Source: Candidatus Bathyarchaeota archaeon (GTDB lineage: Archaea > Thermoproteota > Bathyarchaeia > Bathyarchaeales > Bathycorpusculaceae). Taken from it: 64,000 bases of DNA. Within the stretch, counting starts at the first letter, position 1, and every line of letters starts with the position of its first letter. The notes beneath the pieces were generated by a model that searched no databases, had not been told where the DNA came from, and saw nothing but the letters and a program-made list of their open reading frames with translations. The stretch lies in NCBI GenBank assembly GCA_963811105.1, contig CAWEPZ010000002.1, positions 602,984 through 666,983 of the forward strand, read 5' to 3'. Shown here piece by piece: positions 2,179-41,563 of this stretch. Made by a program: the position numbers and the translations under genes.

Positions 2179-3673
<1,495 letters not shown>

Positions 3674-25750: not shown

Positions 25751-26035
25751 TACTTCTGAACGGGAAAGGCCATGTTCTTTCAGCTAGATTATCAATGTCC
25801 GAAATCACTTTATCTGGTAAACGTACGTTTATTATTTCCAAAACCTGCACCTCTGGTTACTTGAGTTGTACACCTACCTTATTATTTACTACTTAAAATT
25901 GTTAAGGAAATTTCCATGAAACATTCCTTTGAGCGGAATCTCAATGGAAGATGGATCAAATTTCTTAAGGTTAGAGCAAATAGCACAAATGTTATATGCT
26001 TCATTGACCTAAAAAACTGGAAGGGAGAGCTAACT

Positions 26036-27022
26036 ATGAGAAATAACAACAAAATCTTAACTCTAAGTATAATCTTTCTACTAACTTTAACCACAATATA
26101 TGTAAGCGCAGCGTCTATGGCACCTGCAAAAGCAGCAGACACTGCCACATACATCCAAAAATATACCATAAAAGATGGGACCACTGGAGACTTTATTTAT
26201 TCCAATGATCTCACCACCGGCTCAGCCAGTGGTAATTTACAAATAAGTAACGGGCAAGAATTGCAAGTTACAGTTACAATAAAAATCTCCACTAGCAATC
26301 CATCATCCAGCTTAACGCTTAGCACAGGCATGGCTCATCCGAGCGGTGACCACTACTGGGCACATGATTCGAGTGATGGATACAACTTGGGGGCTTACAA
26401 TCCTAATTCCGCAAGTTTCTCATTCACCCAGACGGCTGGAACCTTTACAATAACCTGCTTTGGAGTGGCATCAGGCGTAGTTGCAATTTCAGCGGGCGGA
26501 ATAACATTACATAAGTCAGTACCCGTCAGCTTAGTTGCACTCAAGGATCCCAGCGGAACAATATTGGACGAAATAAAGCCAAACATCACAGACGCATCTA
26601 TCAACGAATATAACACTAAACTGAAAGATGCACAGAATAAATTATCAAGTCTTGGCGGCGCTGACCCATCTTGGACTAGCTTAGCCCAAAATGTAATAAG
26701 TGCATCTCAGACTGTTGCTGACCAAGGTTTAACTGATAATGCAATCGCGATGCTTGACAGCTTAAACAATGCAAGTGCACCAGCGTCAGGAGCACTCCAA
26801 ATACTCTTTATACCCTTGATAGCAATATTCGCAGTCTTGGCAGGACTATTTGGATTCATGTTCATGAGAAATAGAAGCAAAGTAAGCTACTACAAACTTG
26901 TGGTTGAAGACCAAATCAAAGACCTCGAAGGCTTGACCCTCAGAGCTTCAAAGATCGACAGAACAATGGCTTCAAACCTTGATGGCGTGAAAGACAGATT
27001 GAAACGGTTAGTTGGGATGTGA
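26036..27022 (+). CDS. Membrane-anchored secreted protein with short cytoplasmic coiled coil
   Basis: Signal peptide MRNNNKILTLSIIFLL..., S/T/G-rich beta domain, helical stalk, TM ILFIPLIAIFAVLAGLFGFMFM, tail VVEDQIKDLEGL; abuts the tubulin-like gene. Confidence 0.85.
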   Translation: MRNNNKILTLSIIFLLTLTTIYVSAASMAPAKAADTATYIQKYTIKDGTTGDFIYSNDLTTGSASGNLQISNGQELQVTVTIKISTSNPSSSLTLSTGMAHPSGDHYWAHDSSDGYNLGAYNPNSASFSFTQTAGTFTITCFGVASGVVAISAGGITLHKSVPVSLVALKDPSGTILDEIKPNITDASINEYNTKLKDAQNKLSSLGGADPSWTSLAQNVISASQTVADQGLTDNAIAMLDSLNNASAPASGALQILFIPLIAIFAVLAGLFGFMFMRNRSKVSYYKLVVEDQIKDLEGLTLRASKIDRTMASNLDGVKDRLKRLVGM

Positions 27023-27025
27023 TAA

Positions 27026-29722
27026 GCGACGAAAATATACCAAAACAGTGTTCAAGTAATCGGCCTCGGTTCAGCCGGAACAAACATCGTCGAAGCTTTC
27101 CTCAAAAACGCAAAAACCATGGAACTGCTAGGGAACGACATTACTCGTCTTTCCCTTTTAGCAATTGACATAGCTGACCCAGAAATCAGAAGCCTATTAG
27201 AAACTGACGAAAAAATAACCAAATCGATGCTAAAAGCAGGCATTCCGCGAGAAAGACTCCGTGTAGTCGCTCAATCAGTAAAGTTCCCAACAGCCGAAGC
27301 AATGTTCGACTTCATTAACCAAAAATACAACGAATACCTAATAGGCGAAGGAGCTAAACTAGAAGATTTCAAACCGTGGCTTGAATCAACGATGGCAATT
27401 CCACCAATGGCGGGCGGCGCAGGCAGAAGAAGAGCATTAGCAAAAGCAATTTACGCTTTAAACTATTACCAACTTGGTATTATTCGCAATTGCATAAACG
27501 TCTTCAAAGAACAAGCCCTCTCATCAATTATCACTCCAACTGTAGTTCTAGTCTATGGTTTAGGCGGAGGAACAGGAAGCGGGATCTTCTTTGACTTCGC
27601 AAGGCATCTGCGGAAAACATTAGGCTCAGGTGTACCAATCATAGCCTTCGTCATCACTCCTTGTGGCGGAGATGACCCTCCAGCAAAGGGCTGCTCAGCA
27701 TTCACCGCGATGAGCGAGCTTTCGCTTTTGCTCAACAAAGACTATAATCAATATGTCATCAAAGAATTTGGTGACCTGTACCGGAATCCTTTGAACGCCC
27801 TTGTTTACTTGCCTTTGCTTCCTGCATTTTCAAAAGTAGGTAACATAGTTACGGCACGCAAAGAAATGGATGACATGGTTGTAGACATGCTTTATGTTCT
27901 TATGGATTTTGACTTAGCAGACTTGATGGGTGGCATAGGCACAGAAGTTGGGCTTACCACTAATTCAGCCCATACTCTGGGCATGATGAAAGTTATTTAT
28001 CCAGTGGATGACTACATTGCAGCATATAAAGTCAATTTTGAAAGCCTTCAACTGCTTCAAGAGCACCGAAAAGAAAAAATTCAGTTGTTAGATGCAATGT
28101 ACTGCTTGGTTAAAAATAACTATGATGTAGCAAAAGAATACTACAAAAACTATCTAATTAAAACGGGCACTTACAACGAAGAGCAATTTGAAGAAAAAGT
28201 CAAAGCATTAATTACAAGTAACCCGCGAATGGAAGATGACTTAGAACTGCACATCAAAGGCATCGAGATACAAGTTAGAAACTGGATGCGTGAATTAACA
28301 AGATTCCTCTCAACAATCAGATTCATGGGCAAACCTGGTCCAATTGAAGAAGCCATAATCGACCTTACTCTCAAGAAAGCGGGCACAAGGAAAATTGATA
28401 GCCTCGAAGCTTTGCTGGGTAACCTAACAAAAACTCATCTTGAGTTTTCAGATCGAAAAGCTGCCATTATCGAACGGTTGAGGCAGTTAATTCCAAGCTC
28501 GCAAGTCTTCACTGTAAGGCAAAAGAGAATTTTAGATGACTTTGTTAATATTTCTGAGATTGCTGAAAAATCCTTAAACACCTTGAAGTTCTACGATGAA
28601 ACTCGATACTTAACAGACGCATTAGTTCGATATTATAATGTTATGCCAGAGTGCACATGCGAACAGAACGAATTGAAAGACATACAATCTGAACTGGCAA
28701 CAATTTACCTCTTAGTTCAATTGATGCTTAGGTCACCTCAAGACGAAGCAAAAATGATTGAGGAGCACCTCGCCTACGTTAACGGAATCATCCTGAAACG
28801 TCAAGACAGCCGAAGTACTGTAGACAATGAAGTAGTAAGAATTCAAGAATCAAAGAAACGCAAAGAATTTGACAAATCAAAAATGGAAGCTCAACTAAGA
28901 AAGACTTTCAGTTCAAAGAGGTATGCAAGAGAACAACTACTCCAGTTAGATAGGGATTTGAAGAGGATTGAAACTGAAGAAGCGCTTGCTCTTGAGAATT
29001 TGACTAAAGCTGATAACTCAATTCAACTATACGAGAATTTAGCTAAGAGGGTGGAATTAGTATCTGATTACCGTAAGCGTCTCGGCAAAATTGTGGAGAT
29101 GCAGCGCGAATACGAAGAAAGACTTGCAACAATTACAGCGCCAAAGAAGTACTTTGAGAAATCAGCTGAACTAACCGAACTTGAGCAAAGAAAAATCCTA
29201 TTCAAGATACTGACTGAACAAGAAGAAATGCTGTCCAAAGACATTATATTCAGAGACATAATGGACATGGATCACTTCAAAGACTACATGAAAAGTGTAA
29301 TTAGAGCATTCAAGACACCAAGCGTTATGGGATTCAAACCAGTCTACAAAACAGATTACATCTGGGTAACTGTACAATGCCCACCAAACATGTGGACCGA
29401 AGACATGTCCCAAGAAGTCTACACAGCTCTCGCAGGATACGTAACCAGCGAAGTATCAAGAACAATTACTGTTCGAGTAACCGAGTCGAGAGACGCCTGG
29501 ACAACACGTATATTAGTGGTAGGCGGAAGAGCGAAATCTTCAGATATGGAAGCCTACGATGAAATGCAACTACTCTACAGCAAATCAACCGATTTCGAAA
29601 GACACCTCTCAAGATCTTATCTGCTTGAACACGGCGTTGCAGCAACACAAATAGTCAAAGAACTCAGCGGAAACGGCGGCGAAACCGCAACCAACGGAAA
29701 CGGCAAAAACAACAAAAAATAG
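27026..29722 (+). CDS. Giant tubulin/FtsZ-superfamily GTPase with internal coiled coil
   Basis: T1 VQVIGLGSAGTNIV (upstream of ATG 27119), AIDIAD, T3 GGAGRRR, T4 GLGGGTGSG, T7 DFDLADL, long E/K/L/Q heptad region, tubulin-like C-terminal strands. Confidence 0.9.
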   Translation, partial: ATKIYQNSVQVIGLGSAGTNIVEAFLKNAKTMELLGNDITRLSLLAIDIADPEIRSLLETDEKITKSMLKAGIPRERLRVVAQSVKFPTAEAMFDFINQKYNEYLIGEGAKLEDFKPWLESTMAIPPMAGGAGRRRALAKAIYALNYYQLGIIRNCINVFKEQALSSIITPTVVLVYGLGGGTGSGIFFDFARHLRKTLGSGVPIIAFVITPCGGDDPPAKGCSAFTAMSELSLLLNKDYNQYVIKEFGDLYRNPLNALVYLPLLPAFSKVGNIVTARKEMDDMVVDMLYVLMDFDLADLMGGIGTEVGLTTNSAHTLGMMKVIYPVDDYIAAYKVNFESLQLLQEHRKEKIQLLDAMYCLVKNNYDVAKEYYKNYLIKTGTYNEEQFEEKVKALITSNPRMEDDLELHIKGIEIQVRNWMRELTRFLSTIRFMGKPGPIEEAIIDLTLKKAGTRKIDSLEALLGNLTKTHLEFSDRKAAIIERLRQLIPSSQVFTVRQKRILDDFVNISEIAEKSLNTLKFYDETRYLTDALVRYYNVMPECTCEQNELKDIQSELATIYLLVQLMLRSPQDEAKMIEEHLAYVNGIILKRQDSRSTVDNEVVRIQESKKRKEFDKSKMEAQLRKTFSSKRYAREQLLQLDRDLKRIETEEALALENLTKADNSIQLYENLAKRVELVSDYRKRLGKIVEMQREYEERLATITAPKKYFEKSAELTELEQRKILFKILTEQEEMLSKDIIFRDIMDMDHFKDYMKSVIRAFKTPSVMGFKPVYKTDYIWVTVQCPPNMWTEDMSQEVYTALAGYVTSEVSRTITVRVTESRDAWTTRILVVGGRAKSSDMEAYDEMQLLYSKSTDFERHLSRSYLLEHGVAATQIVKELSGNGGETATNGNGKNNKK

Positions 29723-29746
29723 AAGGGAGCTTTAACTCCTTTTTTA
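29723..29746. terminator. Hairpin plus T-run between convergent tubulin-like genes
   Basis: AAGGGAG-cttaa-CTCCTTTTTT. Confidence 0.5.
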
Positions 29747-31483
29747 TTCCAATAAACTTTTTGTGATTAACTGCCAATCTTCTTCAGTTATCGAACCTTT
29801 TTTCACTGCTTTGTTCTTCATTTTTTCAATTCTTTTCTCTAGTGCAGTAAATCTTGTAATGGTGTCAAAGCCGCCTACAAACAAGGCTATATCTATGCGG
29901 TCACTGCTGTCTTCTACATACACTGGGTCAGTTATGAAGATTGATTCGAGGTCTGCTTTATTCTTGAACCAGTCAGCTACTGCTAATTCAATTTTTCCCC
30001 TTGTAAGCTTTTCTTTCAACTGAAATGGCATTCGCATAAGAACATAAACTATGGTGGCGGTTGATAGGTCAAAAGTAAAAAGTGGTCGGAGCAGAGTAGA
30101 GTTAAGCATATTTTCTAATGAACCGTAAATTTTCAAGCTTACCCCAGGTGATAATAAAACAGTGAACATTTTGGAGCCAAACGATTTCGACATCTCACAA
30201 AGTTCTGGGACAAGAGTTTCTTTAGCTAACATTAAATCAAGAAGGTAATTCAATACTTCGTTTCCGTTAATGGCGTAACCGCTTCGGTCAACACCTACGT
30301 AACTTTCGAGATTGTCTCTATCAAAAAGCACAAGCGCTGTATCTTGTTTCGAAGCCAAAATGCCTATGGACGCAAAACTGTTGAATTGCCCATCTATGGG
30401 CTGCGCCTTCGAGGGCAAAAGTGGTAGAGCTATGGAGTTTATATTCCATTCTTTGAATTGAGAATTTAAGGTTGGTAATAGAGCGCTACTTATGCCGTCC
30501 CAAGTGGATGAAACTATGATGGCGCCTTGAAGTTTCTCGATAGGTTTGCTCTTAATTTTTCCAAAAAAGTTTTCATTGCCTGTCATATAGGGCAAAATGT
30601 CGTACCAGAAATGAGTATCAATATCCTCATCTAAACAGACAATATTGTTATCTTCAAGTTTTCCCCGACCCCATTTAACCACATCTTTAGTTGATTTTTC
30701 AACAAAGATAGGTAGAACCCCTCTGACTTTTTTGCCTGCAAAAGAGCCTTTTAAGAGAATGCTTATTGGGTATTCACCAATGCATATGACCGCTTTTGTC
30801 GGTAAAAGAGACTTTAAATTATCAGTAAATTCTCCTATGTTTTCGACACTGTCTGTTAATGGTACTTTATTCTCAACCTCGATTGACATGCTCGCGACTA
30901 CACTTTCTACTGGCAACGCAATTTGCTCAAGGTCGGGGCGAGTCAATGGATCAGCGAGTTTATCTTGATCCTTCACCCATTTCAATTCGATGAGTGTTTG
31001 ATTCTGTTTTCCATCAATCAATTGAACATTGGTATCGATTTGAGGTTTTTCCAGCGTTTCTTTTTCGTTTTCAGCTGATTTGTTGTCTATTTCCACGATG
31101 TTTTCTTGAGTTGCGGCCTCTGATGAGGCTGGTTGAATATTATTAGCTTTGTCAGCGGTTTGAACCGGATTGTCGGTTGAAGTTAGCAATGTTTCACTTT
31201 GTTGACCACTGTCTTGGTTGTTTGTTGGGGCTGTATTAGATTCGACTTCAGCCTGTGATGGCTGTTTTACATTTTCAGCTGACAGTAAGTTGCTATCGCT
31301 GTCAATTGGTTGAATGTTGTCGTTAATCCCAACTGGCTGTTTTGCTGTTTCATCAACGGTTGGTTGTGTGAAGTTGTCGTTATTGATTGGTGCAGACGGT
31401 TTGTTGGTTCCATTTGCACGTTCTTTTTCATAGTCACTTTTTGAATACCATAATTTCAGTTTTCTTCTAGGCAAAGTTATCAC
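29744..31483 (-). CDS. Degenerate tubulin/FtsZ-fold protein with acidic disordered N-terminus
   Basis: ~225-aa N/Q/D/E/P/T-rich N-terminus; AVICIGEYP, VSSTWDGISSALLP, LPLLPS..NSFASI, LVLFDRDNL, DLSTATIVYVL, IDIALFVGG follow FtsZ/CetZ element order. Confidence 0.7.
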   Translation of the reverse strand: MITLPRRKLKLWYSKSDYEKERANGTNKPSAPINNDNFTQPTVDETAKQPVGINDNIQPIDSDSNLLSAENVKQPSQAEVESNTAPTNNQDSGQQSETLLTSTDNPVQTADKANNIQPASSEAATQENIVEIDNKSAENEKETLEKPQIDTNVQLIDGKQNQTLIELKWVKDQDKLADPLTRPDLEQIALPVESVVASMSIEVENKVPLTDSVENIGEFTDNLKSLLPTKAVICIGEYPISILLKGSFAGKKVRGVLPIFVEKSTKDVVKWGRGKLEDNNIVCLDEDIDTHFWYDILPYMTGNENFFGKIKSKPIEKLQGAIIVSSTWDGISSALLPTLNSQFKEWNINSIALPLLPSKAQPIDGQFNSFASIGILASKQDTALVLFDRDNLESYVGVDRSGYAINGNEVLNYLLDLMLAKETLVPELCEMSKSFGSKMFTVLLSPGVSLKIYGSLENMLNSTLLRPLFTFDLSTATIVYVLMRMPFQLKEKLTRGKIELAVADWFKNKADLESIFITDPVYVEDSSDRIDIALFVGGFDTITRFTALEKRIEKMKNKAVKKGSITEEDWQLITKSLLE

Positions 31484-31549: not shown

Positions 31550-34102
31550 TTGAAAGCGGGAGAGAAAGAGAATACTTCACGTTTCAAACGCTTGTTTAAC
31601 AGAAGTAAGAGAGCGCCAAAACAGAAAGAAAACGAGGAAAACCAAACAACCGAAGAGACACCAACCACAAGTCAGGCACCAAAAAAGCTCTCGGGATTCA
31701 ACGAACGCTTCAGCATCACCAATATTAGAAAAAAGATGAAAGAGACAGAAAAGAGGGAACGTGCGCTTGAAACAACTAGAATCAAAATCATAACATTAAT
31801 TATGACTTTTATCGCAATGGGATTGGCTTTTTCGTTAATACCCCTATTATCACAGCCTTTGCCAATACTTCTAGCTCTACTTGTAGCTTTTGTTACTTGG
31901 CAAAAACCACGAATTGGAATGCCTGTTGGAAGCATCATTATCGGCATAGGCTTGCTTTATCATTTATCAGTATTTAATGCTGATGACCCTGTAAATTCAA
32001 TTAATTTCATTGCCCTGATAGGCGAACCCGTCTACCGATTCGCCTTCGCTGGTGTTTTAATGGGTTTATTTGTTGCGTTGCCCATAATCTTCTACCGCTA
32101 CAGGCATGCTATTGCCATAGACTTTGGCATATTGGCGGCGATGTCGCTTGCCAGCAACCAAACATACTTTTTAGCTATTCCATTAATCTTAACTGCAGTG
32201 GTGTTCTACAAAAAAGACGCTGTCGTAGCTGCCGTGTATTATGGTTTAATAACTATACCTTTGATGATTGTAGAATATTTTAAGTTCTATATAGCACAAA
32301 CTACCGCCGTAGAATGGTGGAAAGCGCCGGGGTCAGCTCCGCCGCTTTTTGAGCCTCTGACAAAAACGTTTAACCTACTTCAATCAACAACCATGGGCTC
32401 TTTTAGGCTCTTTAATGCAAACCAGCTTACAGACGCAATAACGTATCAATTTCTGCCCACGACCAATCCAGATATCGTAGGAAAAACAATGCGCTCAGCG
32501 ATTATTCAATACCGTGACTCTTTCCCAGGAATACTCTTGTTCGTGGTTATTATTGTCGGAGTAGTTTTGGCACTCATGGTTTTCGGCGTCGGTTTCGTAA
32601 AGAAGACAAACATTGCATATGGTGACCGCGTGTTAACATCTTTAGTTGCCACTGTAGCTACTGCATTGTTCTTTGTGCTTTTAGGTTCTCTTCAAGCTCC
32701 ATTAGCTTACACTGCAACAGTTGATGTTACAGCCACCGCTTTAGCTACTTTAGCCACTCTTGCCTTCACATTACCTATTTCCATGATTAATTATCAACCT
32801 AAAAAAAATGCAACAGCAGATATGATTACTGAAAAAGCAAATGAGTTGATGGTGACGCTCCAAGCCTTTGAAACCCAACTTAACATTGTCAAAACAAGCA
32901 TTCCAATAAACGTCAGCGCCACAGACGTAAAAATGATGCTTCTCAAAGACAAACTAAACGATATTCAAAACAAAATCTCCAAAGGATTCTACGAACCATC
33001 AGAAATGGACAAAATCTTCAATGAACTAGACAAAAGCATCAGCGCGGAAATTGATGGTCTGATATCTGAACTTAACGCTATTCTTAGTGAATACCAAATT
33101 TTCGTCAACACAGAATACGCTTCATGGCTTGGCAGACTCAAAGATGACATCGGATTAGAATTTAAGGCCAGCATGAAACCACATTATGAAGCAAACTTAC
33201 CTTTGGAAGAGCGAATACAAAGTATCCAAGAAGTGCTAGACGCTGGCAGAGTTCTAGCAGTTGATGTCATCCAAGTTGTTAATCCAATCTACGAAATTAT
33301 AACAGTTTTGTATGATCCAAATCTTCCTAAAGACAGCGAGGCAGTTGCCTATTCCAAAATGAAGCTTGATGAAAAAGCACCTTGGCAAGCGGTTGAAGCA
33401 TTGTACGTAGCGCTTAATAATTGGCGCAAGCAGTACGGCGATGAGATTGCAAAATCCACAGAATACCTCAAAAACTCCTTGAAGCCAATTATTGATTTAC
33501 CCCTTCAAAGTGGCAGTTTAGGGCCAGTCTTAGGTGACAAAATGCCCATGATACTGGGGGATGCAAAGAAAGCATCATTAATCAAAGATACCAGTGAGAA
33601 AAAACAGCTAAATGTTTTGAATCTGTTGACCATCGAATATCTTCTTGACGGCGTTCTTGATATTTCCAAAGACGTTTTCTCTATCCTTAACGAAGCGCTG
33701 AATAACCAAGAAAAAGACATCGTGGAAATGCTGCCTACAAGCAATTACCTTTGGGAGAAAAACGCTACTTTAAACGAAAGAATGACAGAAGCACTAACTG
33801 TACTATCTAGCCCAAGAAGTAAAGTGAACGAAATTATGGAAAACCTGCCAAAATTCGAAGGCTACATCAATGAATGCATACAAACACTAACATTATACAA
33901 TGAACGCAGAGAGCTCCTGCTCAACTATCCAATGGCGAGAATTGCAATAGAAGATCAGCTAAAACAAAAAACGCGCCTGACAACAGCTGATCTGCCCTTT
34001 GAAACAAAATACTCAGCTGAATACTTGCGACTCTACTACTTGGAAAAGTACAGCGAATTCGACTTTGACAAACAAAACGTTTGGTTAACAAAGAAAAGTT
34101 GA
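31550..34102 (+). CDS. Large polytopic membrane protein with long C-terminal helical domain
   Basis: Charged N-terminus, ~9-10 TM segments, ~430-aa amphipathic helical tail. Confidence 0.85.
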   Translation: MKAGEKENTSRFKRLFNRSKRAPKQKENEENQTTEETPTTSQAPKKLSGFNERFSITNIRKKMKETEKRERALETTRIKIITLIMTFIAMGLAFSLIPLLSQPLPILLALLVAFVTWQKPRIGMPVGSIIIGIGLLYHLSVFNADDPVNSINFIALIGEPVYRFAFAGVLMGLFVALPIIFYRYRHAIAIDFGILAAMSLASNQTYFLAIPLILTAVVFYKKDAVVAAVYYGLITIPLMIVEYFKFYIAQTTAVEWWKAPGSAPPLFEPLTKTFNLLQSTTMGSFRLFNANQLTDAITYQFLPTTNPDIVGKTMRSAIIQYRDSFPGILLFVVIIVGVVLALMVFGVGFVKKTNIAYGDRVLTSLVATVATALFFVLLGSLQAPLAYTATVDVTATALATLATLAFTLPISMINYQPKKNATADMITEKANELMVTLQAFETQLNIVKTSIPINVSATDVKMMLLKDKLNDIQNKISKGFYEPSEMDKIFNELDKSISAEIDGLISELNAILSEYQIFVNTEYASWLGRLKDDIGLEFKASMKPHYEANLPLEERIQSIQEVLDAGRVLAVDVIQVVNPIYEIITVLYDPNLPKDSEAVAYSKMKLDEKAPWQAVEALYVALNNWRKQYGDEIAKSTEYLKNSLKPIIDLPLQSGSLGPVLGDKMPMILGDAKKASLIKDTSEKKQLNVLNLLTIEYLLDGVLDISKDVFSILNEALNNQEKDIVEMLPTSNYLWEKNATLNERMTEALTVLSSPRSKVNEIMENLPKFEGYINECIQTLTLYNERRELLLNYPMARIAIEDQLKQKTRLTTADLPFETKYSAEYLRLYYLEKYSEFDFDKQNVWLTKKS

Positions 34103-36661: not shown

Positions 36662-39277
36662 TTATGCTTTTTTCCTGAGTAGCAAAAATCCTACTATAGC
36701 GACCGCCAGAATAATTGCAATGGTTGAAATTGCGAAGTATAGCTCAAAAGGTGTTTGTGCAGCCAATGTTAGCGGTGTGGGTGTTGGAGTTGTAACTGGA
36801 CCTTTGGCTGCCGTTGCATAAGTAGTTGCATATGAACTGCCGTAGGAGTCGTCGCCCATGAATGTTGCCGTAATAGTGTATTGTCCTTCAATTGCAGGGT
36901 ACCATGTGTAGCCGAAAGTGCCGCTGTATCCTTCAGTGGTTACGTCTGCGATATGAATTGGGTTACCGTTTGAATCTACAGCATCTATGGATACTGGAAC
37001 CCCAATTATCGTTTCATTGTTAAAGAGTCCACCGTGTGGCTGCGACAGATGCAAGTATTCCATTTGTGTTGACATTGAATCCTTTGAAACACATGGCGAA
37101 CTAGACTCTGCCGGTGACATGTCAAGTACTGTACCTTTAATCAAAATTCCATTCCCTGCAGATACTGCTGTTTCCGGCGCCGTTACTGTAGTAGTGCTCT
37201 GCCCCTTGCCGATCACATACATATACCCATCCCACGGGTTAGCAGCTACCAGATAGCCATCAGAAACTGCTCCAAAAGTCATTGGATTATCTAGTTTCCA
37301 TACAAGTGTACCATCAGTCATATTGATGCAGTGTATGCCCCACCCTCGTGTTAGCGGCCAAGTGGGTGTGTGCTCAGTATTGTATGTGAACAGCTTTCCG
37401 TCAGCAATGTTTCCGCCTGCATTGAAGGCATAATTATCAGTGCCATTTACATCAGTGTAGGGACTTTCGAACGGTGCATATGTGGGTGCAACGTAGTGCC
37501 ACACTATTCTGCCATCAGTCCAGTTGAAGGCCCAAACGCCGTCATAAGCATACCTAATGACCATACCATAACCTGACGAGATTGCGTAAGCTCCGAAACC
37601 AGAGACCGACCAAGGATAATCCGTCTTCTCACTTCTGAACCATTTTCCCGTAAAGCCATCGAATATTACGAAGTATCCGCCTTGAGCCCAAGCAGCGACT
37701 TTTCCGTGATCCATCATCACAGGGCCTGAATGATACAGAATGTCCGGATATTCAGTTGTTGTTAAGTTGTATGTCAGTGCGCCTGTTGATAGCTTATAGA
37801 ATTGGCATACGATTTGCCACCTTAAACTATCGAAGGGCTGACCATATTGTGGATTAGACTGTCCATATGTATCTGTCACGACTGCTCCCATATCGTTCTC
37901 GTAATCCTGGTATGTCGGTAGACTGCTTCTCTGGTAGGTTGTATTGCTTATTATTCTAGTAGTGAAGTTAGTGCTTGTTCCTCTTGTTGTCCAGTTAATC
38001 AAACGGTAACGTTGATCGCCTGCGGTTGCTCCGAGATCCTGTATGTTCGAAACATAGCCACCGATCTGGTTGACAAAAGTACCTCCCGTCAAGGGCGCAA
38101 TTGAGTAGTTCCCGGTTACGGCTCCAGTAAATGGATCAATCTTCCTCAAATACGAACCGCTTATCGACAAAAGATCGATTGACCAAGTTTGAGATCCTAA
38201 TTCCTCGCCAGAGATTGTCTCGCTCGATGAGACTGGTGAATTATATGCAATCCAAGAAGGCGTAATACCATTCGATGCTATCGGTATTGCGTAATACTGT
38301 ACTCCGGTTTGTAGATCATAGCACACTGCACAGCTCGTTGGCACACCCTGTATTGATACCGTCATGGTCTGGTAGCATCTTCCTGCATAGATCACACTGG
38401 GGGTACCTGGATTACCTGTTGTTCCGAACTGGCCTGCCGGGCCTCCGATAAGGCCTGCCACAGCACCAAGTCGTTTCCACAGTACGTGAGCAGTGTTTGG
38501 CGCTTGAACCCATGGAGTGAAACCAGCAGCTGAATTGTATTGTTTGGTCGTGCCAGGATAGAGTGTGTCCCAGTTAGGATAGCCAAAGCCAACATAGCCA
38601 GTGCCAGGATAGTTTCCTAGAATTGGCCACCAACCTCTGTTGTTTATTGAAGCAGGGCGAGTCCAGTAGTCGGTCGGCATGGTTAACGGCCAAGACGCCA
38701 CAGCAGCTTGCTGAACGGTAAGGTTTTGTGTCTGAGTGGAACTGGGCTTGTAGTAGCATTCGTTATATATGTTATCTCTTCCGCCAAACTCAAGATTAGC
38801 TCCCGATGAGTTCGTTACGATTTTTCCATTGAAATATCGTCCTGCAGGGAAATACGTTCCAATAAAGTCAAACTTGATTCCCCATGTTCCAGTTTGATCT
38901 GGAGTTAGTGTAAACCAGCTTGCAGCGGTAGCAGGTTCCGAGTCTACAGTTCTGACGTCTTTGGTTCCGTCTGGTTTCGTGATTGTAATTACAAATCCCA
39001 TGGGAATAATTATATTGTTTGAAGGGAGTGCAGGATTAATCCAGAAGTTCACCAAAACTTCTTGACCAACGCCTACAACCCAAGGTTCAAAGCTAAGGAA
39101 GGCTCTAGTTTCAGCTTGTCTGGCAACAGTAATGCCGGCTGGTATTGGTCCACTAACGGGTTGTTGTGCAGCAAGTTGACCCTTGGCTGACTGAATTGGC
39201 ATTAACATTGGTACAATAGAAGCAATCAGAATTGCCATGAAGATTAAAGCAAGTGTCTTTATTTTGTTTGTTTGCAA
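36662..39277 (-). CDS. Large surface protein with PQQ-like beta-propeller and Ig-like domains, C-terminal anchor
   Basis: Signal peptide, ITKPDG, APNTAHVLW, DG..VW repeats, IADGK, TM plus LRKK. Confidence 0.88.
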   Translation of the reverse strand: MQTNKIKTLALIFMAILIASIVPMLMPIQSAKGQLAAQQPVSGPIPAGITVARQAETRAFLSFEPWVVGVGQEVLVNFWINPALPSNNIIIPMGFVITITKPDGTKDVRTVDSEPATAASWFTLTPDQTGTWGIKFDFIGTYFPAGRYFNGKIVTNSSGANLEFGGRDNIYNECYYKPSSTQTQNLTVQQAAVASWPLTMPTDYWTRPASINNRGWWPILGNYPGTGYVGFGYPNWDTLYPGTTKQYNSAAGFTPWVQAPNTAHVLWKRLGAVAGLIGGPAGQFGTTGNPGTPSVIYAGRCYQTMTVSIQGVPTSCAVCYDLQTGVQYYAIPIASNGITPSWIAYNSPVSSSETISGEELGSQTWSIDLLSISGSYLRKIDPFTGAVTGNYSIAPLTGGTFVNQIGGYVSNIQDLGATAGDQRYRLINWTTRGTSTNFTTRIISNTTYQRSSLPTYQDYENDMGAVVTDTYGQSNPQYGQPFDSLRWQIVCQFYKLSTGALTYNLTTTEYPDILYHSGPVMMDHGKVAAWAQGGYFVIFDGFTGKWFRSEKTDYPWSVSGFGAYAISSGYGMVIRYAYDGVWAFNWTDGRIVWHYVAPTYAPFESPYTDVNGTDNYAFNAGGNIADGKLFTYNTEHTPTWPLTRGWGIHCINMTDGTLVWKLDNPMTFGAVSDGYLVAANPWDGYMYVIGKGQSTTTVTAPETAVSAGNGILIKGTVLDMSPAESSSPCVSKDSMSTQMEYLHLSQPHGGLFNNETIIGVPVSIDAVDSNGNPIHIADVTTEGYSGTFGYTWYPAIEGQYTITATFMGDDSYGSSYATTYATAAKGPVTTPTPTPLTLAAQTPFELYFAISTIAIILAVAIVGFLLLRKKA

Positions 39278-40230: not shown

Positions 40231-41563
40231 TTAACCTTTACTTTTTCTCATTCTAACGTACAGGTACATAAAAGTGAAGCTAATTGCAATAAAGACTACA
40301 GCTGCCAAGGTATAAAGGTCATAGTTAGGTGATGAAGGAGACGGAGAAGTCAGCTGCGATATTGGACCGCCAAAGCAATAAACTGTCCCTTCCCTTGAGA
40401 CTACGTAAAGTTTGCCGTCGGCAATAGCGGGGGAAGATTTTACTTCGCTTCCAACGTCATAATTCCATATTTGCATTCCTGTAGTCGAGTTTAAACAATA
40501 TGCGCGTCCGTCGTTTGAGCCTATGTACAGTTTGTCGTCAGCAATAGCCGGGGAAGAAGCCACAGAATCTCCAGTTTCAAAATTCCAGATTATTGCTCCA
40601 TCGCTCGGACTTAAACAGTAAACATTTCCATCCCATGAACCCACGAAGACTTTGCCGTAAGCGAAAGCGGGAGATGAGAATACAGCTGGCGGCGCATCGC
40701 AACTCCATATTATTGTTCCAGTATTGGCGTCCAAACAATGAATTTGCGACCCCACCCACCCTTGTGGTGACCCGCCATCTGCAAAAAAGACTTTTCCATC
40801 AGCAACACAAGGAGAATCGCTAATTTTACTTGAAGCTGTATAAGTCCATAGCATAGCTCCTGTATTCTCATCTAAAGCAAAAAAGCTGTCTTGGCTTCCT
40901 GCAAATACCTTGCCGTCAGCTACTGCGGGGTTAAAGGGCCAATCCCCAGTATTATATTTCCACACCAACGCTCCTGTGTCCGAGTCGAGGCAATAAAGGT
41001 TAAAATCAGCCGATCCTGTAAACACCTTGCCCTCTGAAACAGCGATAAAGGAAAACAAATCGTCCCCAGTTTTGTATTTCCATATAACCAATCCGTTTGT
41101 TGCATTCAAGCAATACATGTAATCATCTATAGATCCTATGTAGACTTTTCCATCAAGAACGGCCGGAGATGCCCTGTTCGGGTGATATTGTCCTTGCGTG
41201 CATCGCATGGATAAATCGCTTCTATATTTCCAAATAAATGAGCCTGTACTGGCGTTCAAACAAACGACGTAATCATCCTCTGACTGTATAAACATCCTAT
41301 CATCTGCAACCGCGGGAGAAGCACACATAACACCTCCCGAAAGTGTATAATTCCACAATAAATTTGGTGTGTTAGGTGCTAGGCTTTCGGTGTAACCTGT
41401 GAAGCCAGCGTCGTGGTGGAACATTGGCCACGGATAGCTTGTTTGATTTTCTTGTGCACTCAGCTGGGCGTTGGCTGTTTGGTAGACAATTGGATGCAAC
41501 AAGAAAAGCTATCAATAAAACCATCGAGAATGCAAATAGTCTAGTATGGGTATTTGAGGTCAA
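40231..41563 (-). CDS. PQQ-repeat (BamB-like) beta-propeller surface protein (one +1 frameshift in signal peptide)
   Basis: WPMFHHD, repeated SSPAVADGKVY/FVGS.DG.VYCL...TG..IW; signal peptide is in another frame, joined at a T-run near 41505. Confidence 0.9.

Follow-up and report, generated by a model that had tools for sequence, protein, structure and literature searches.

FtsZl1/Tubulin_2 proteins have been known as sequences since 2010, and we know of no function or partner established for them. They combine an N-terminal FtsZ-like GTPase domain with a long coiled coil and an alpha-helical or alpha-beta C-terminus, carry PF13809 and have membrane proteins in their operons, and a membrane-remodelling role has been proposed for these systems (Makarova and Koonin 2010, PMC2875224). 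The partners listed in the portion of that paper available to us are vWA proteins, protein kinases, P-loop GTPases and OmpA-family proteins; no second tubulin-fold protein is named in that portion. A thaumarchaeal FtsZ-like protein (the Nmar_1262 type, with the motif AGKAGSA) has been described in a Cdv/ESCRT-III-bearing TACK archaeon, where its role is not known; it is reported not to polymerise in yeast, even with the motif restored (PMC3684127).

Here we analysed a stretch of 64,000 nucleotides from a Candidatus Bathyarchaeota genome (the window), in which a giant GTPase of the FtsZl1 kind, with the same domain order and PF13809, lies in a cluster with other genes (Table 1). The locus provides FtsZl1/Tubulin_2 with a defined and conserved partner set, made up of a pair of membrane proteins together with another protein of tubulin fold, 579 aa long. 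None of the vWA, protein kinase, P-loop GTPase or OmpA-family partners listed in the accessible part of the 2010 survey is present in this cluster. In the literature as far as it was available, with supplements that may include members, we found no description of the family of the 579-aa protein or of any tubulin-fold partner of FtsZl1.

Table 1. Features of the cluster and of the 579-aa protein (positions in the window)
Feature	Position	Strand	Basis or remark
Bitopic membrane (anchored) protein, upstream gene of the cluster	25916..27022	+	TM prediction, conserved neighbourhood
Giant FtsZl1/Tubulin_2-type GTPase	27029..29722	+	Pfam PF13809, invariant motifs; ATG at 27119
Gene of the 579-aa protein	29744..31483	-	GTG start; stop codon 29744-29746
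Complete tubulin/FtsZ-superfamily fold, residues 225-579	29747..30811	-	AF2, Foldseek, VIA
End of H7, short T7, H8, residues 421-435 KETLVPELCEMSKSF	30179..30223	-	E427, E430 nearly invariant
S6/T6 equivalent D388-R389-D390	30314..30322	-	Arg in place of the N or Y of relatives and the N of CetZ (D-N-D)
T4-loop equivalent, residues 326-334 STWDGISSA	30482..30508	-	GGGTGSG replaced by W-D-G-x-G/S-S-A
T1-loop equivalent, residues 233-239 ICIGEYP	30767..30787	-	glycine loop replaced by G-E-Y-P
N-terminal helix before the tubulin fold, residues 209-224 (model helix 10-25)	30812..30859	-	
Acidic low-complexity linker, residues 25-208	30860..31411	-	composition, charge
Basic/aromatic N-terminal peptide, residues 1-24 VITLPRRKLKLWYSKSDYEKERAN	31412..31483	-	conserved in long-armed relatives
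Polytopic membrane protein, divergent from the gene of the 579-aa protein	31550..34102	+	conserved neighbourhood

Our preferred explanation, to which we give a probability of roughly 0.6, is that the 579-aa protein is a non-catalytic, nucleotide-independent tubulin-fold subunit of a membrane-anchored two-tubulin FtsZl1 machine. The protein belongs to the tubulin/FtsZ superfamily as a divergent member, with the whole fold kept and the canonical GTP-binding loops given up, and it represents, in Bathyarchaeia, a partner protein found in conserved clusters built on the giant GTPase. The machine itself would comprise this GTPase, the bitopic protein with its cytoplasmic tail and the polytopic protein with its large cytoplasmic domain.

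The first-pass annotation had assigned a tubulin/FtsZ fold to residues ~225-579 and had set this beforehand as the point on which it could be refuted; the predicted structure is indeed a tubulin fold according to AlphaFold2 (AF2), Foldseek and VIA. The AF2 model of the core, built on an 85-row alignment with distant relatives, reached a pLDDT of 94.1 and a pTM of 0.91, while the shallow alignment A1 (24 close homologs) gave an unusable model (pLDDT 49.5). Residues 225-579 form the equivalent of the nucleotide domain, the core helix H7, the C-terminal domain and the terminal helices, and the helix that precedes them is also present in short forms of 377 aa. Foldseek matched the model to BtubA, tubulins, TubZ and CetZ with probability 1.00 and E ~1e-14, and of at least 500 matches at E<=0.001 all the entries among those listed belong to the tubulin superfamily. 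The top structural match was the Odin tubulin 7eve (VIA Z 30.6, rmsd 3.2, 337 aa, model residues 26-380). The best matches were CetZ, Odin/Asgard tubulins, BtubA/B and eukaryotic tubulins, which align along the whole chain, terminal helices included (Z 29-30.6; TM 0.75 to CetZ1, normalised to the 579-aa protein), although identity to CetZ and tubulins is 10-16% and T1, T4 and T6 are not conserved.

Standard searches give no hint of this relationship. The 579-aa protein matched no Pfam family at E<=0.1 (the sole match, Phage_XkdX, has a chance-level E of 0.19), PF00091 was absent at E<=1, and NCBIfam, PADLOC and a single-protein query of PDB sequences returned nothing; the family profile found no tubulin among PDB sequences either, with an unrelated best match at E 0.14. 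PF12327 (FtsZ_C) is absent from the protein and from the host genome search. Nevertheless, the family profile collects 133 representatives and matches PF00091-bearing proteins at E 1e-27 to 1e-5, and PF00091 itself is detected at E<=0.1 in 28 of the 30 distant representatives scanned, 15 of them above the Pfam cut-off. Moreover, hhalign joins the family to the tubulin-like relatives with a Zn ribbon over 350 columns (probability 100, E 1.8e-39), and the best PDB matches of a joint partner profile are CetZ (1e-13) and AtubB2 (4.7e-13). At the level of sequence comparison, homology to the tubulin/FtsZ superfamily is thus proven through intermediates, without a direct match. Since the family is missed by standard domain searches, censuses of archaeal tubulin relatives based on PF00091 probably undercount it. 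In its own genome (96.65% complete), the gene of the 579-aa protein and that of the giant GTPase were the only tubulin-superfamily genes found. ESCRT-III homologs are present in the host archaeal group, in which our searches detected neither FtsZ nor CetZ.

The T1 and T4 glycines and the T6 Asn contact nucleotide in FtsZ and tubulin. Replacement of the T1 and T4 glycine loops had been proposed from the letters alone, and it is borne out by both the alignment to relatives and the family counts; likewise, all the strings quoted at that stage occur in the protein (ICIGEYP 233-239, WDGISS 328-333, LLPS...FNSF 355-370, LFDRDNL 386-392, DLSTA 472-476 and IALFVGG 532-538). ICIGEYP aligns opposite VGIGTAGG of relatives with intact motifs, and in the A2 profile, which includes the 579-aa protein, the matching positions fall opposite IGVGQAGG of CetZ. 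The GxGxxG loop is absent, I-G-E-Y-P-I being there instead, and the family has G in 53/53, E in 53/53, Y in 51/53 and P in 47/53 sequences. At T4, SSTWDGISSA lies opposite TALGGGTGSG of relatives, and the same A2 profile places the matching positions opposite the CetZ T4 loop. Across 70 sequences the counts are W 69, D 64 (N 6), G 70, G 69, S 69 and A 64, which gives the consensus W-D-G-V/I-G-S-A; the canonical GGGTG[ST]G occurs in 0/70, and the protein in the window is the only one of the 70 in which residue 332 is S and not G. The T6 Arg is found in 69/70 members; of 24 distant relatives, 8 have N and 9 have Y, and CetZ has 'VDNDAF'. Because the T1 and T4 replacements are nearly invariant across the family, they have been selected and reflect neither chance nor decay. 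The nucleotide-contact positions are occupied by Trp and Asp (T4), Glu-Tyr-Pro (T1) and Arg (T6), and GTP binding would have been lost.

The same loops can be read in another way, namely that the protein still binds nucleotide in a non-canonical pocket formed by W-D-G-x-G-S-A, G-E-Y-P and D-R-D, and that it polymerises or acts as a switch. Half of T4 is kept (G330 and S333, with G at 332 in 69/70), P357-S358-K359...F367-N368 of T5 are invariant or nearly so in the family, and the strict conservation of the replacing residues shows the pocket region to be functional. Given the retained G-x-G-S-A and T5 region, the protein could still take up a nucleotide or some other phosphorylated ligand. However, the first two glycines of T4 have become Trp and Asp, those of T1 Glu-Tyr-Pro, and the Asn of D-N-D is an Arg. 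Furthermore, the thaumarchaeal protein with the milder AGKAGSA change is reported not to polymerise in yeast even after restoration (PMC3684127). We consider nucleotide binding by the 579-aa protein unlikely, albeit the least unlikely of the alternatives to our preferred explanation.

A second family-specific feature is located after H7. E427 and E430 are each present in 69/70 members, both at the start of the helix that follows H7 in the AF2 model. The E430 column has E in 22/27 Bathyarchaeial rows and is acidic in 0/24 distant relatives, and the deeper branches of the family do not have this acid. Judging by spacing and alignment, E427 and E430 may correspond to the acids of T7/H8 that are catalytic in FtsZ and alpha-tubulin. 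The H8 residue in question is acidic in one tubulin (alpha E254) and basic in the other (beta K254), and alpha-tubulin still binds GTP. The H8 Glu apparently gained in the main Bathyarchaeial clade sits at the position of this catalytic alpha-tubulin E254 and of the beta-tubulin lysine, if the textbook equivalence holds. An acidic versus basic contrast in one H8 residue would recall alpha/beta-tubulin, as does the idea of two paralogous tubulin folds with one subunit that does not turn over nucleotide. In a similar manner, the comparison with Misato/DML1 made by the first-pass annotation survives as a concept, but no Misato family was matched in Pfam at E<=0.1.

The closest relatives of the 579-aa protein are the Zn-ribbon tubulin-like proteins (e.g. 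P0180, P0184 and P0187; some labelled as Nitrososphaerota MAG), which are homologous to it over the whole fold and for which we found no description in the literature searched. They share with it the LPS...FNA, IYGSLENIL-like and SDRID..LLGG motifs, have the giant FtsZl1 GTPase, the anchored protein and the polytopic protein as neighbours, and fall with it into one clade. Unlike it, most of them keep GxGxxG, GGGTGSG and an N-terminal Zn ribbon. In a tree of ORFs chosen by HMM, computed with a quick search and with SH-aLRT as the only support, the family of the 579-aa protein forms one clade (SH-aLRT 99) nested in a 48-row partner clade (SH-aLRT 90). This partner clade includes many GGGTGSG members and is separated from 10 other tubulin-superfamily paralogs, and the GGGTGTG paralogs, FtsZ-like by motif, are outside it. 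By the position of the family in this tree, its replaced loops are a derived state. The 579-aa protein shares with the partner clade homology over its whole length, the LPS..FNA and SDRID..GG motifs and the cluster location. The Nmar_1262 type resembles it in being a tubulin-superfamily member with a degenerate T4, hence the same concept of a protein devoid of GTP motifs. Nonetheless, the AGKAGSA proteins (315-333 aa) match the family profile in the N-terminal half only (E ~1e-10), differ in T4 motif and length, and group among the other paralogs rather than in the partner clade, as a separate lineage.

The gene neighbourhood is conserved along with the protein, and the link to the giant GTPase goes well past the side-by-side placement noted at first pass. 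At 80 Bathyarchaeial loci the giant GTPase was present in 77, the polytopic protein in 77 and the anchored protein in 70; for the first two, where we checked, the missing cases are loci that end near the gene of the 579-aa protein. In the sampled genomes the family occurs in 10/401, and all 10 are among the 16 with the giant GTPase. In four of the other six genomes with this GTPase, a partner-like ORF that is even more degenerate lies 2.3-2.4 kb beyond it. Half (5/10) of the sampled genomes of the host genus have neither the 579-aa protein nor the giant GTPase, which indicates an accessory system. The anchored protein is laid out as a signal/TM segment (47-65), a ~230-aa outside domain, a second TM (296-314) and a ~50-aa cytoplasmic helical tail; its translation probably begins at an internal Met (residue 41), and in the protein atlas it matched only unnamed Bathyarchaeota clusters. 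The polytopic protein has ~9-10 TM segments (residues 80-413) followed by a ~435-aa soluble helical C-terminal region.

The arrangement of the genes differs between lineages. In Bathyarchaeia the gene of the 579-aa protein lies on the opposite strand and converges with that of the giant GTPase, so the pair is not co-transcribed. Fifteen metagenome loci of the relatives bearing GTP motifs have the cluster genes colinear with an extra gene X, and 11 truncated loci are consistent with this order; there, the gene of the GTP-competent relative ends the operon, after the polytopic protein and gene X. Five loci of distant relatives (L125-L127, L129 and L130) have tandem paralogs in place of the cluster.

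These data also bear on the idea that the 579-aa protein is a self-assembling scaffold independent of nucleotide, or an adaptor for the membrane proteins of the cluster and not for the giant GTPase, with the fold serving as a protein-binding platform. Its gene shares a divergent intergenic region of 66 bp with that of the polytopic protein, the relatives' gene follows the polytopic protein and gene X at the operon end, both membrane proteins have sizeable cytoplasmic parts, and disordered N- or C-terminal tails or a Zn ribbon are present depending on lineage, as expected of docking modules. On the other hand, co-occurrence with the giant GTPase is as tight as with the membrane proteins, and such a role leaves the conserved, family-specific acid pair at H8 unexplained. 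We find it improbable, and more so than residual nucleotide binding. The remaining alternative, a decaying paralog without function of its own whose relic tubulin gene is kept by linkage, accords with the lost canonical motifs and with the lack of Pfam, NCBIfam or PDB sequence matches, but is hardly credible given the 526 homologs (identity 55-96% among the 120 matches listed), 56 invariant columns in an alignment of 24 members, replaced loops that are themselves nearly invariant, an intact fold predicted with high confidence and a reading frame kept open in nearly all loci. The ORF called at first pass is real, and the homologs on record include another 579-aa protein at 96% identity.

The neighbour of the 579-aa protein had been described as an intact tubulin homolog; the GGGTGSG motif and the conserved link between the two genes agree with this, but its type is FtsZl1/Tubulin_2 and not CetZ/tubulin. 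It carries GLGSAG (T1), GGGTGSG (T4) and a T7-like DFDLADL, and its 867/898 aa open with an FtsZ-like GTPase domain, continue through a long helical middle part and end in an alpha/beta region. The 579-aa protein has no PF13809 match and no coiled-coil region, and is thus not itself of the FtsZl1/Tubulin_2 type. The conserved T1 of the giant GTPase lies in frame upstream of the ATG, the match to PF13809 improves from 4.3e-10 to 8.6e-15 with the N-terminal extension, and the start codon column reads ACG in 67/70 and ATG in 3/70; the conserved ACG at 27029, rather than the ATG, is the likely start. We rejected the possibility that the 579-aa protein supplies a T7 loop missing from the giant GTPase, since the alignment of the GTPase family has a conserved T7-like [DN]FD[LP]ADL with invariant aspartates. 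The 'TRILVVGG' string in its C-terminus, considered as a displaced S9-S10 of a split tubulin fold, found no support, as hhalign aligns residues 10-231 only (probability 95). A complex prediction that paired the core of the 579-aa protein with residues 1-352 of the giant GTPase, GTP and Mg included, scored 0.00 twice, was run without controls and is neutral on binding.

The N-terminal ~225 aa had been called acidic and low-complexity. This applies to most of the region, which is N/E/S/T/D/Q/P-rich with a net charge of -18 over residues 1-225, but not to the first ~24 residues, which are basic (the first 30 aa carry a net charge of about +5) and conserved in long-armed relatives with the consensus [MV]ITLPKRKL[RK]LWY[SN]K.DY.KERE. 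The linker varies in length and sequence between relatives and is lacking in most family members, many of which have 376-399 aa; in 109 homologs the arm measures between 0 and 297 aa. The model has coil at its residues 1-9 (protein 200-208), with a mean pLDDT of 57 over its first 10 residues. Viewed across these alignments, the arm is a clade-specific appendage in which an acidic linker bears a conserved basic peptide.

If the 579-aa protein is indeed the nucleotide-independent subunit of a two-tubulin machine, it may dock on the giant GTPase through the longitudinal face typical of tubulins, with E427 and E430 of H8 acting on, or capping, the GTPase site of its partner. The first-pass annotation had proposed a heteropolymer subunit, cap or nucleator, each of them a putative role. 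Against an action of E427 and E430 on the partner's site stand the invariant aspartates in the T7-like motif of the giant GTPase itself, which make an acid in trans unnecessary. The basic peptide on its flexible acidic linker could tether the protein to a membrane component; the arm would be analogous to the linker and terminal peptide of FtsZ, and it is found where the relatives have their Zn ribbon.

The locus thus offers a testable model of a GTPase and a pseudo-GTPase tubulin paired on a membrane anchor in an archaeal group that bears ESCRT-III, and it shows that a second tubulin-fold protein can drop its GTP loops yet remain under strong selection. More tentatively, TACK archaea may have a two-tubulin membrane machine in which the giant FtsZl1 always keeps its GTP site, while its dedicated partner has given up GTP binding in three or more separate clades and has gained the H8 Glu in the main Bathyarchaeial one. 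If true, the partner would be a pure GTPase activator or cap, in an independent prokaryotic re-invention of the alpha/beta split between catalytic and non-exchanging subunits, and a two-paralog system of which one subunit has repeatedly lost nucleotide binding would bear on the evolution of heterodimeric tubulin. The clades proposed to have undergone such a loss are the Bathyarchaeial WDGxGSA family, a clade of Nitrososphaerota type and a third family.

We propose that the partner, a tubulin-like protein encoded next to a giant GTPase of FtsZl1/Tubulin_2 type, would serve a membrane-anchored FtsZl1 machine as a tubulin-fold subunit without catalytic activity, which is the best-supported explanation of our data (probability about 0.6). 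That the partner functions together with the surrounding gene cluster appears very likely, and we give slightly less than even odds to a direct tubulin-type contact with the giant GTPase. In those parts of the full-text literature covered by our search, neither the partner's family nor a tubulin-fold partner for FtsZl1 is described. The closest published concept is the thaumarchaeal FtsZ-like protein Nmar_1262, which has a variant motif and did not polymerise in yeast (PMC3684127).

Coordinates of the features discussed, in the window or in related loci (L-numbers)
Feature	Location	Strand	Remarks
Archaeal 16S rRNA	window 2179-3673		
Junction of giant GTPase with preceding gene	window 27017-27121		equivalent in L002-L081
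Apparent giant GTPase start codon	window 27029-27031		ACG
Giant GTPase, from first ATG	window 27119-29722	+	Pfam Tubulin_2 4.3e-10, Tubulin more weakly
Giant GTPase, C-terminal segment	window 29150-29650		~170 aa
Partner ORF	window 29744-31483	-	GTG start, 579 aa
Beta-propeller protein (PQQ_2/BamB-like)	window 36662-39277	-	
Beta-propeller protein (PQQ_2/BamB-like)	window 40231-41502	-	strong matches, PF13570 1.5e-58
Degenerate partner-like ORF	L180 4530-5540	-	~300-340 aa
Degenerate partner-like ORF	L181 4444-5571	-	~300-340 aa
Degenerate partner-like ORF	L182 12942-13937	+	~300-340 aa
Degenerate partner-like ORF	L184 168-1139	-	~300-340 aa
Gene X	L086-L122, e.g. L089 6993-7976		~330-350 aa, unannotated; ~1 kb upstream of Zn-ribbon tubulin-like gene

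The partner ORF is a real gene. We found 526 proteins homologous to its residues 226-579 at E<=0.001 (among 7158 candidates); one, with 96% identity, is also 579 aa long, and all 526 lack a Pfam domain or a name beyond 'hypothetical protein'. Since many homologs span only 376-399 aa, the C-terminal ~377 residues represent the conserved unit, and the long N-terminal arm is an appendage restricted to some lineages. The window belongs to a Bathyarchaeial genome, and record titles at nearly all related loci read Bathyarchaeota or Bathyarchaeia. Bins assigned to bacteria or to other phyla contain a few of the loci or proteins, namely Limnocylindrales (L042), Promethearchaeota (L035) and Dehalococcoidia (P0181/P0195 clusters). 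L042 carries the same flanking AIR-synthase-like, phosphoribosyltransferase and hydrolase genes as the window and many loci, so mis-binning is likely there.

Searches with the partner itself yielded a chance-level match alone in Pfam, and none in NCBIfam or by sequence in the PDB. With a profile of 24 family members, the top PDB match was unrelated (E 0.14), and AlphaFold2 on a shallow 24-member alignment gave a failed model (pLDDT 49.5). Run against 1.84 billion representatives, the family profile found 133 proteins, including distant relatives of 420-460 aa (E 1e-27 to 1e-5). Among 30 of these scanned, 28 matched Pfam Tubulin (PF00091) at E<=0.1, 15 exceeded its curated cut-off and several bore an N-terminal zinc ribbon. 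By hhalign the family aligned to 24 distant relatives over 350 columns (probability 100, E 1.8e-39), and the joint profile matched CetZ (1e-13), the Asgard tubulin AtubB2, FtsZ and TubZ in the PDB. An 85-row alignment including the distant relatives led AlphaFold2 to a model of residues 200-579 with pLDDT 94.1 and pTM 0.91. Foldseek matched it to tubulins, BtubA, TubZ and CetZ (E ~1e-14, probability 1.00; TM 0.75 for CetZ1, normalised to the partner). VIA-align gave Z 30.6 and rmsd 3.2 A over 337 residues with Odin tubulin and Z ~29 with eukaryotic tubulins and BtubA, spanning model residues 26-380, terminal helices included. The first-pass annotation had proposed a tubulin/FtsZ fold, and this holds; because the predicted structure matches tubulins, the contrary outcome of a different fold did not arise.

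The replacement of the glycine loops, also noted at first pass, was borne out by alignments to relatives and by conservation in 70 family sequences. ICIGEYP (T1, residues 233-239) and SSTWDGISSA (T4, 325-334) stand opposite VGIGTAGG and TALGGGTGSG of the intact-motif relatives, and a profile including the partner sets the same positions opposite the CetZ T1/T4 loops. In the family, T4 reads W (69 of 70), D (64, with N in 6), G (70), V/I/F, G (69), S (69) and A (64); the window's protein alone has Ser for Gly at residue 332. T1 has G and E in 53/53, Y in 51/53 and P in 47/53, and the Arg of the S6/T6 motif D-R-D is kept in 69/70, a position held by Asn or Tyr in CetZ and many relatives. Because the replacing residues are nearly invariant, the loops reflect selection for a new pocket state and not decay. 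In FtsZ and tubulin the T1/T4/T6 positions touch the phosphates and base of the nucleotide, and it is from these contacts that we infer a loss of GTP binding. The partner thus probably binds no nucleotide at all. The rival idea that it still does so is unlikely, and is kept alive by the invariant T5 region (P-S-K...F-N) and the retained half of T4.

In the AlphaFold2 model, core helix H7 (model residues 208-221) is followed by a three-residue loop and a helix (model residues 225-236) that carries E427 and E430, each present in 69/70 family members. Based on the spacing from H7 and the alignment (shared C, S and K around them), we consider both candidate counterparts of the T7/H8 acid pair in FtsZ and of D251/E254 in alpha-tubulin. 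The E430 column holds Glu in 22/27 Bathyarchaeial rows and is acidic in 0/24 distant relatives (R 8, K 6, others), and the acid is missing from the deepest Bathyarchaeial branches too. E430 is thereby suggestive of a gained activator-type residue; an activator or cap role for the pair is less likely than not.

The arm had been described as low-complexity and acidic, which holds for residues 1-225 as a whole (net charge -18) but not for the first ~24 residues, a basic/aromatic stretch that long-armed relatives share. Beyond it, both length and sequence are variable. In another clade the arm is a different one of 250-297 aa, others have C-terminal tails, and distant relatives carry a Zn ribbon at the end where the partner has its arm. 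As terminal modules differ by lineage while the basic peptide is conserved, the arm would fit a flexible tether that carries a docking peptide.

The cluster is conserved. Across 80 Bathyarchaeial loci, the giant GTPase lies convergent and downstream of the partner gene in 77, a polytopic membrane protein divergent and upstream in 77, and, preceding the GTPase, a bitopic membrane protein in 70; the three GTPase and three polytopic misses are loci that stop no more than about 300 bases from the gene. In the bitopic protein, a signal/TM segment and a second TM enclose an outside domain, and a helical tail of ~50 aa lies in the cytoplasm; the polytopic one combines ~9-10 TM segments with a soluble C-terminal region of ~435 aa. 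Neither had a significant Pfam match, and PADLOC matched no cluster protein. We also fetched 66 metagenome loci of intact-motif relatives, where the same gene set occurs but in single-strand order: anchored protein, giant GTPase, polytopic protein, gene X and Zn-ribbon tubulin-like protein. The full set is present in 15, 11 truncated loci are consistent with it, and 15 have no upstream sequence. There the partner gene is without exception preceded by gene X (32 ORF hits), in which a beta-rich N-terminal part leads into a charged helix and then a C-terminal half made of helices. ORFs weakly resembling X lie after the polytopic gene in just two Bathyarchaeial loci, and none was found in the window. 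Five loci whose family members are more distantly related (L125-L127, L129, L130; 25-28% identity to the Zn-ribbon query) have a tandem paralog in place of the cluster, with the relative 1.3-1.4 kb downstream of that second tubulin-like gene. Two beta-propeller proteins near the cluster are unrelated to it as far as seen.

The neighbour had been called an intact tubulin homolog. Its GTP motifs are indeed invariant, but Pfam and architecture assign it to FtsZl1/Tubulin_2: its GTPase domain is followed by a long helical region and then a C-terminal domain, the FtsZl1 layout described by Makarova and Koonin 2010 (PMC2875224). A 38-row alignment has invariant T1 (G-x-G-x-x-G), T4 (G-G-G-x-G-x-G) and T7-like [DN]-F-D-[LP]-A-D-L, which gives it the appearance of a complete GTPase equipped with a catalytic loop of its own. 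Only residues 10-231 (S1 to H5) aligned to the partner family by hhalign (probability 95). The C-terminal segment (DYIWVTV...P...helix...TITVRV...TRILVVGG) shares a strand-Pro-helix-strand-strand-GG pattern with S8-H10-S9-S10 of the partner (IVYVLMRMP...DRIDIALFVGG), a repeat that hhalign did not detect; given this pattern, the giant GTPase might have a tubulin fold interrupted by a coiled-coil insertion of ~400 aa.

The T1 strand of the giant GTPase (IYQNSVQVIGLGSAG) is encoded in frame 5' of the first ATG; the strand is present in 55/55 intact Bathyarchaeial copies. Between the upstream stop and the T1-strand codons, 58/70 sequences lack an in-frame ATG, GTG or TTG. The equivalent start place is ACG (or one codon earlier) in 67 of the 70 and ATG in the other three; in the window this ACG lies 6 bases past the TGA TAA stops of the preceding gene. 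Translation thus appears to start at the conserved ACG, and the fixation of a Thr codon as ACG across the family indicates a near-cognate start or termination-reinitiation.

Among 401 genomes drawn evenly from the phylum, 16 encode the giant GTPase, including all 10 with matches of target-family strength, at adjacent coordinates. In four of the other six, a partner-like ORF of still greater degeneracy lies 2.3-2.4 kb beyond the GTPase; a fifth has no partner in the 18.5 kb fetched, and in the sixth the contig ends. These four ORFs, from other families of the phylum, follow an anchored protein and giant GTPase pair and score profile E 4e-4 to 1.8e-8; a T4-like string (AGVAGD or AGRAED) was found in those of L180 and L181, and the polytopic-protein profile did not recognise the intervening gene. 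Neither gene is present in 5/10 sampled same-genus genomes, which makes the system accessory. In the window's genome, 96.65% complete, no further tubulin-superfamily gene and no FtsZ_C were found; it has two Snf7/ESCRT-III matches.

A quick IQ-TREE search (58 rows, SH-aLRT only) separated 48 cluster-associated partners from 10 paralogs of the phylum that also belong to the tubulin superfamily (support 90), with AGKAGSA-type thaumarchaeal FtsZ-like proteins among the latter and the target family as one clade (99). Within the partner clade, canonical GGGTGSG is found widely. T4 is degenerate in three or more clades that stand apart from each other (the target family together with two intermediates; a clade of four rows including Nitrososphaerota-labelled proteins; a third family, represented among the degenerate partner-like ORFs above), so the GTP motif was likely lost repeatedly.
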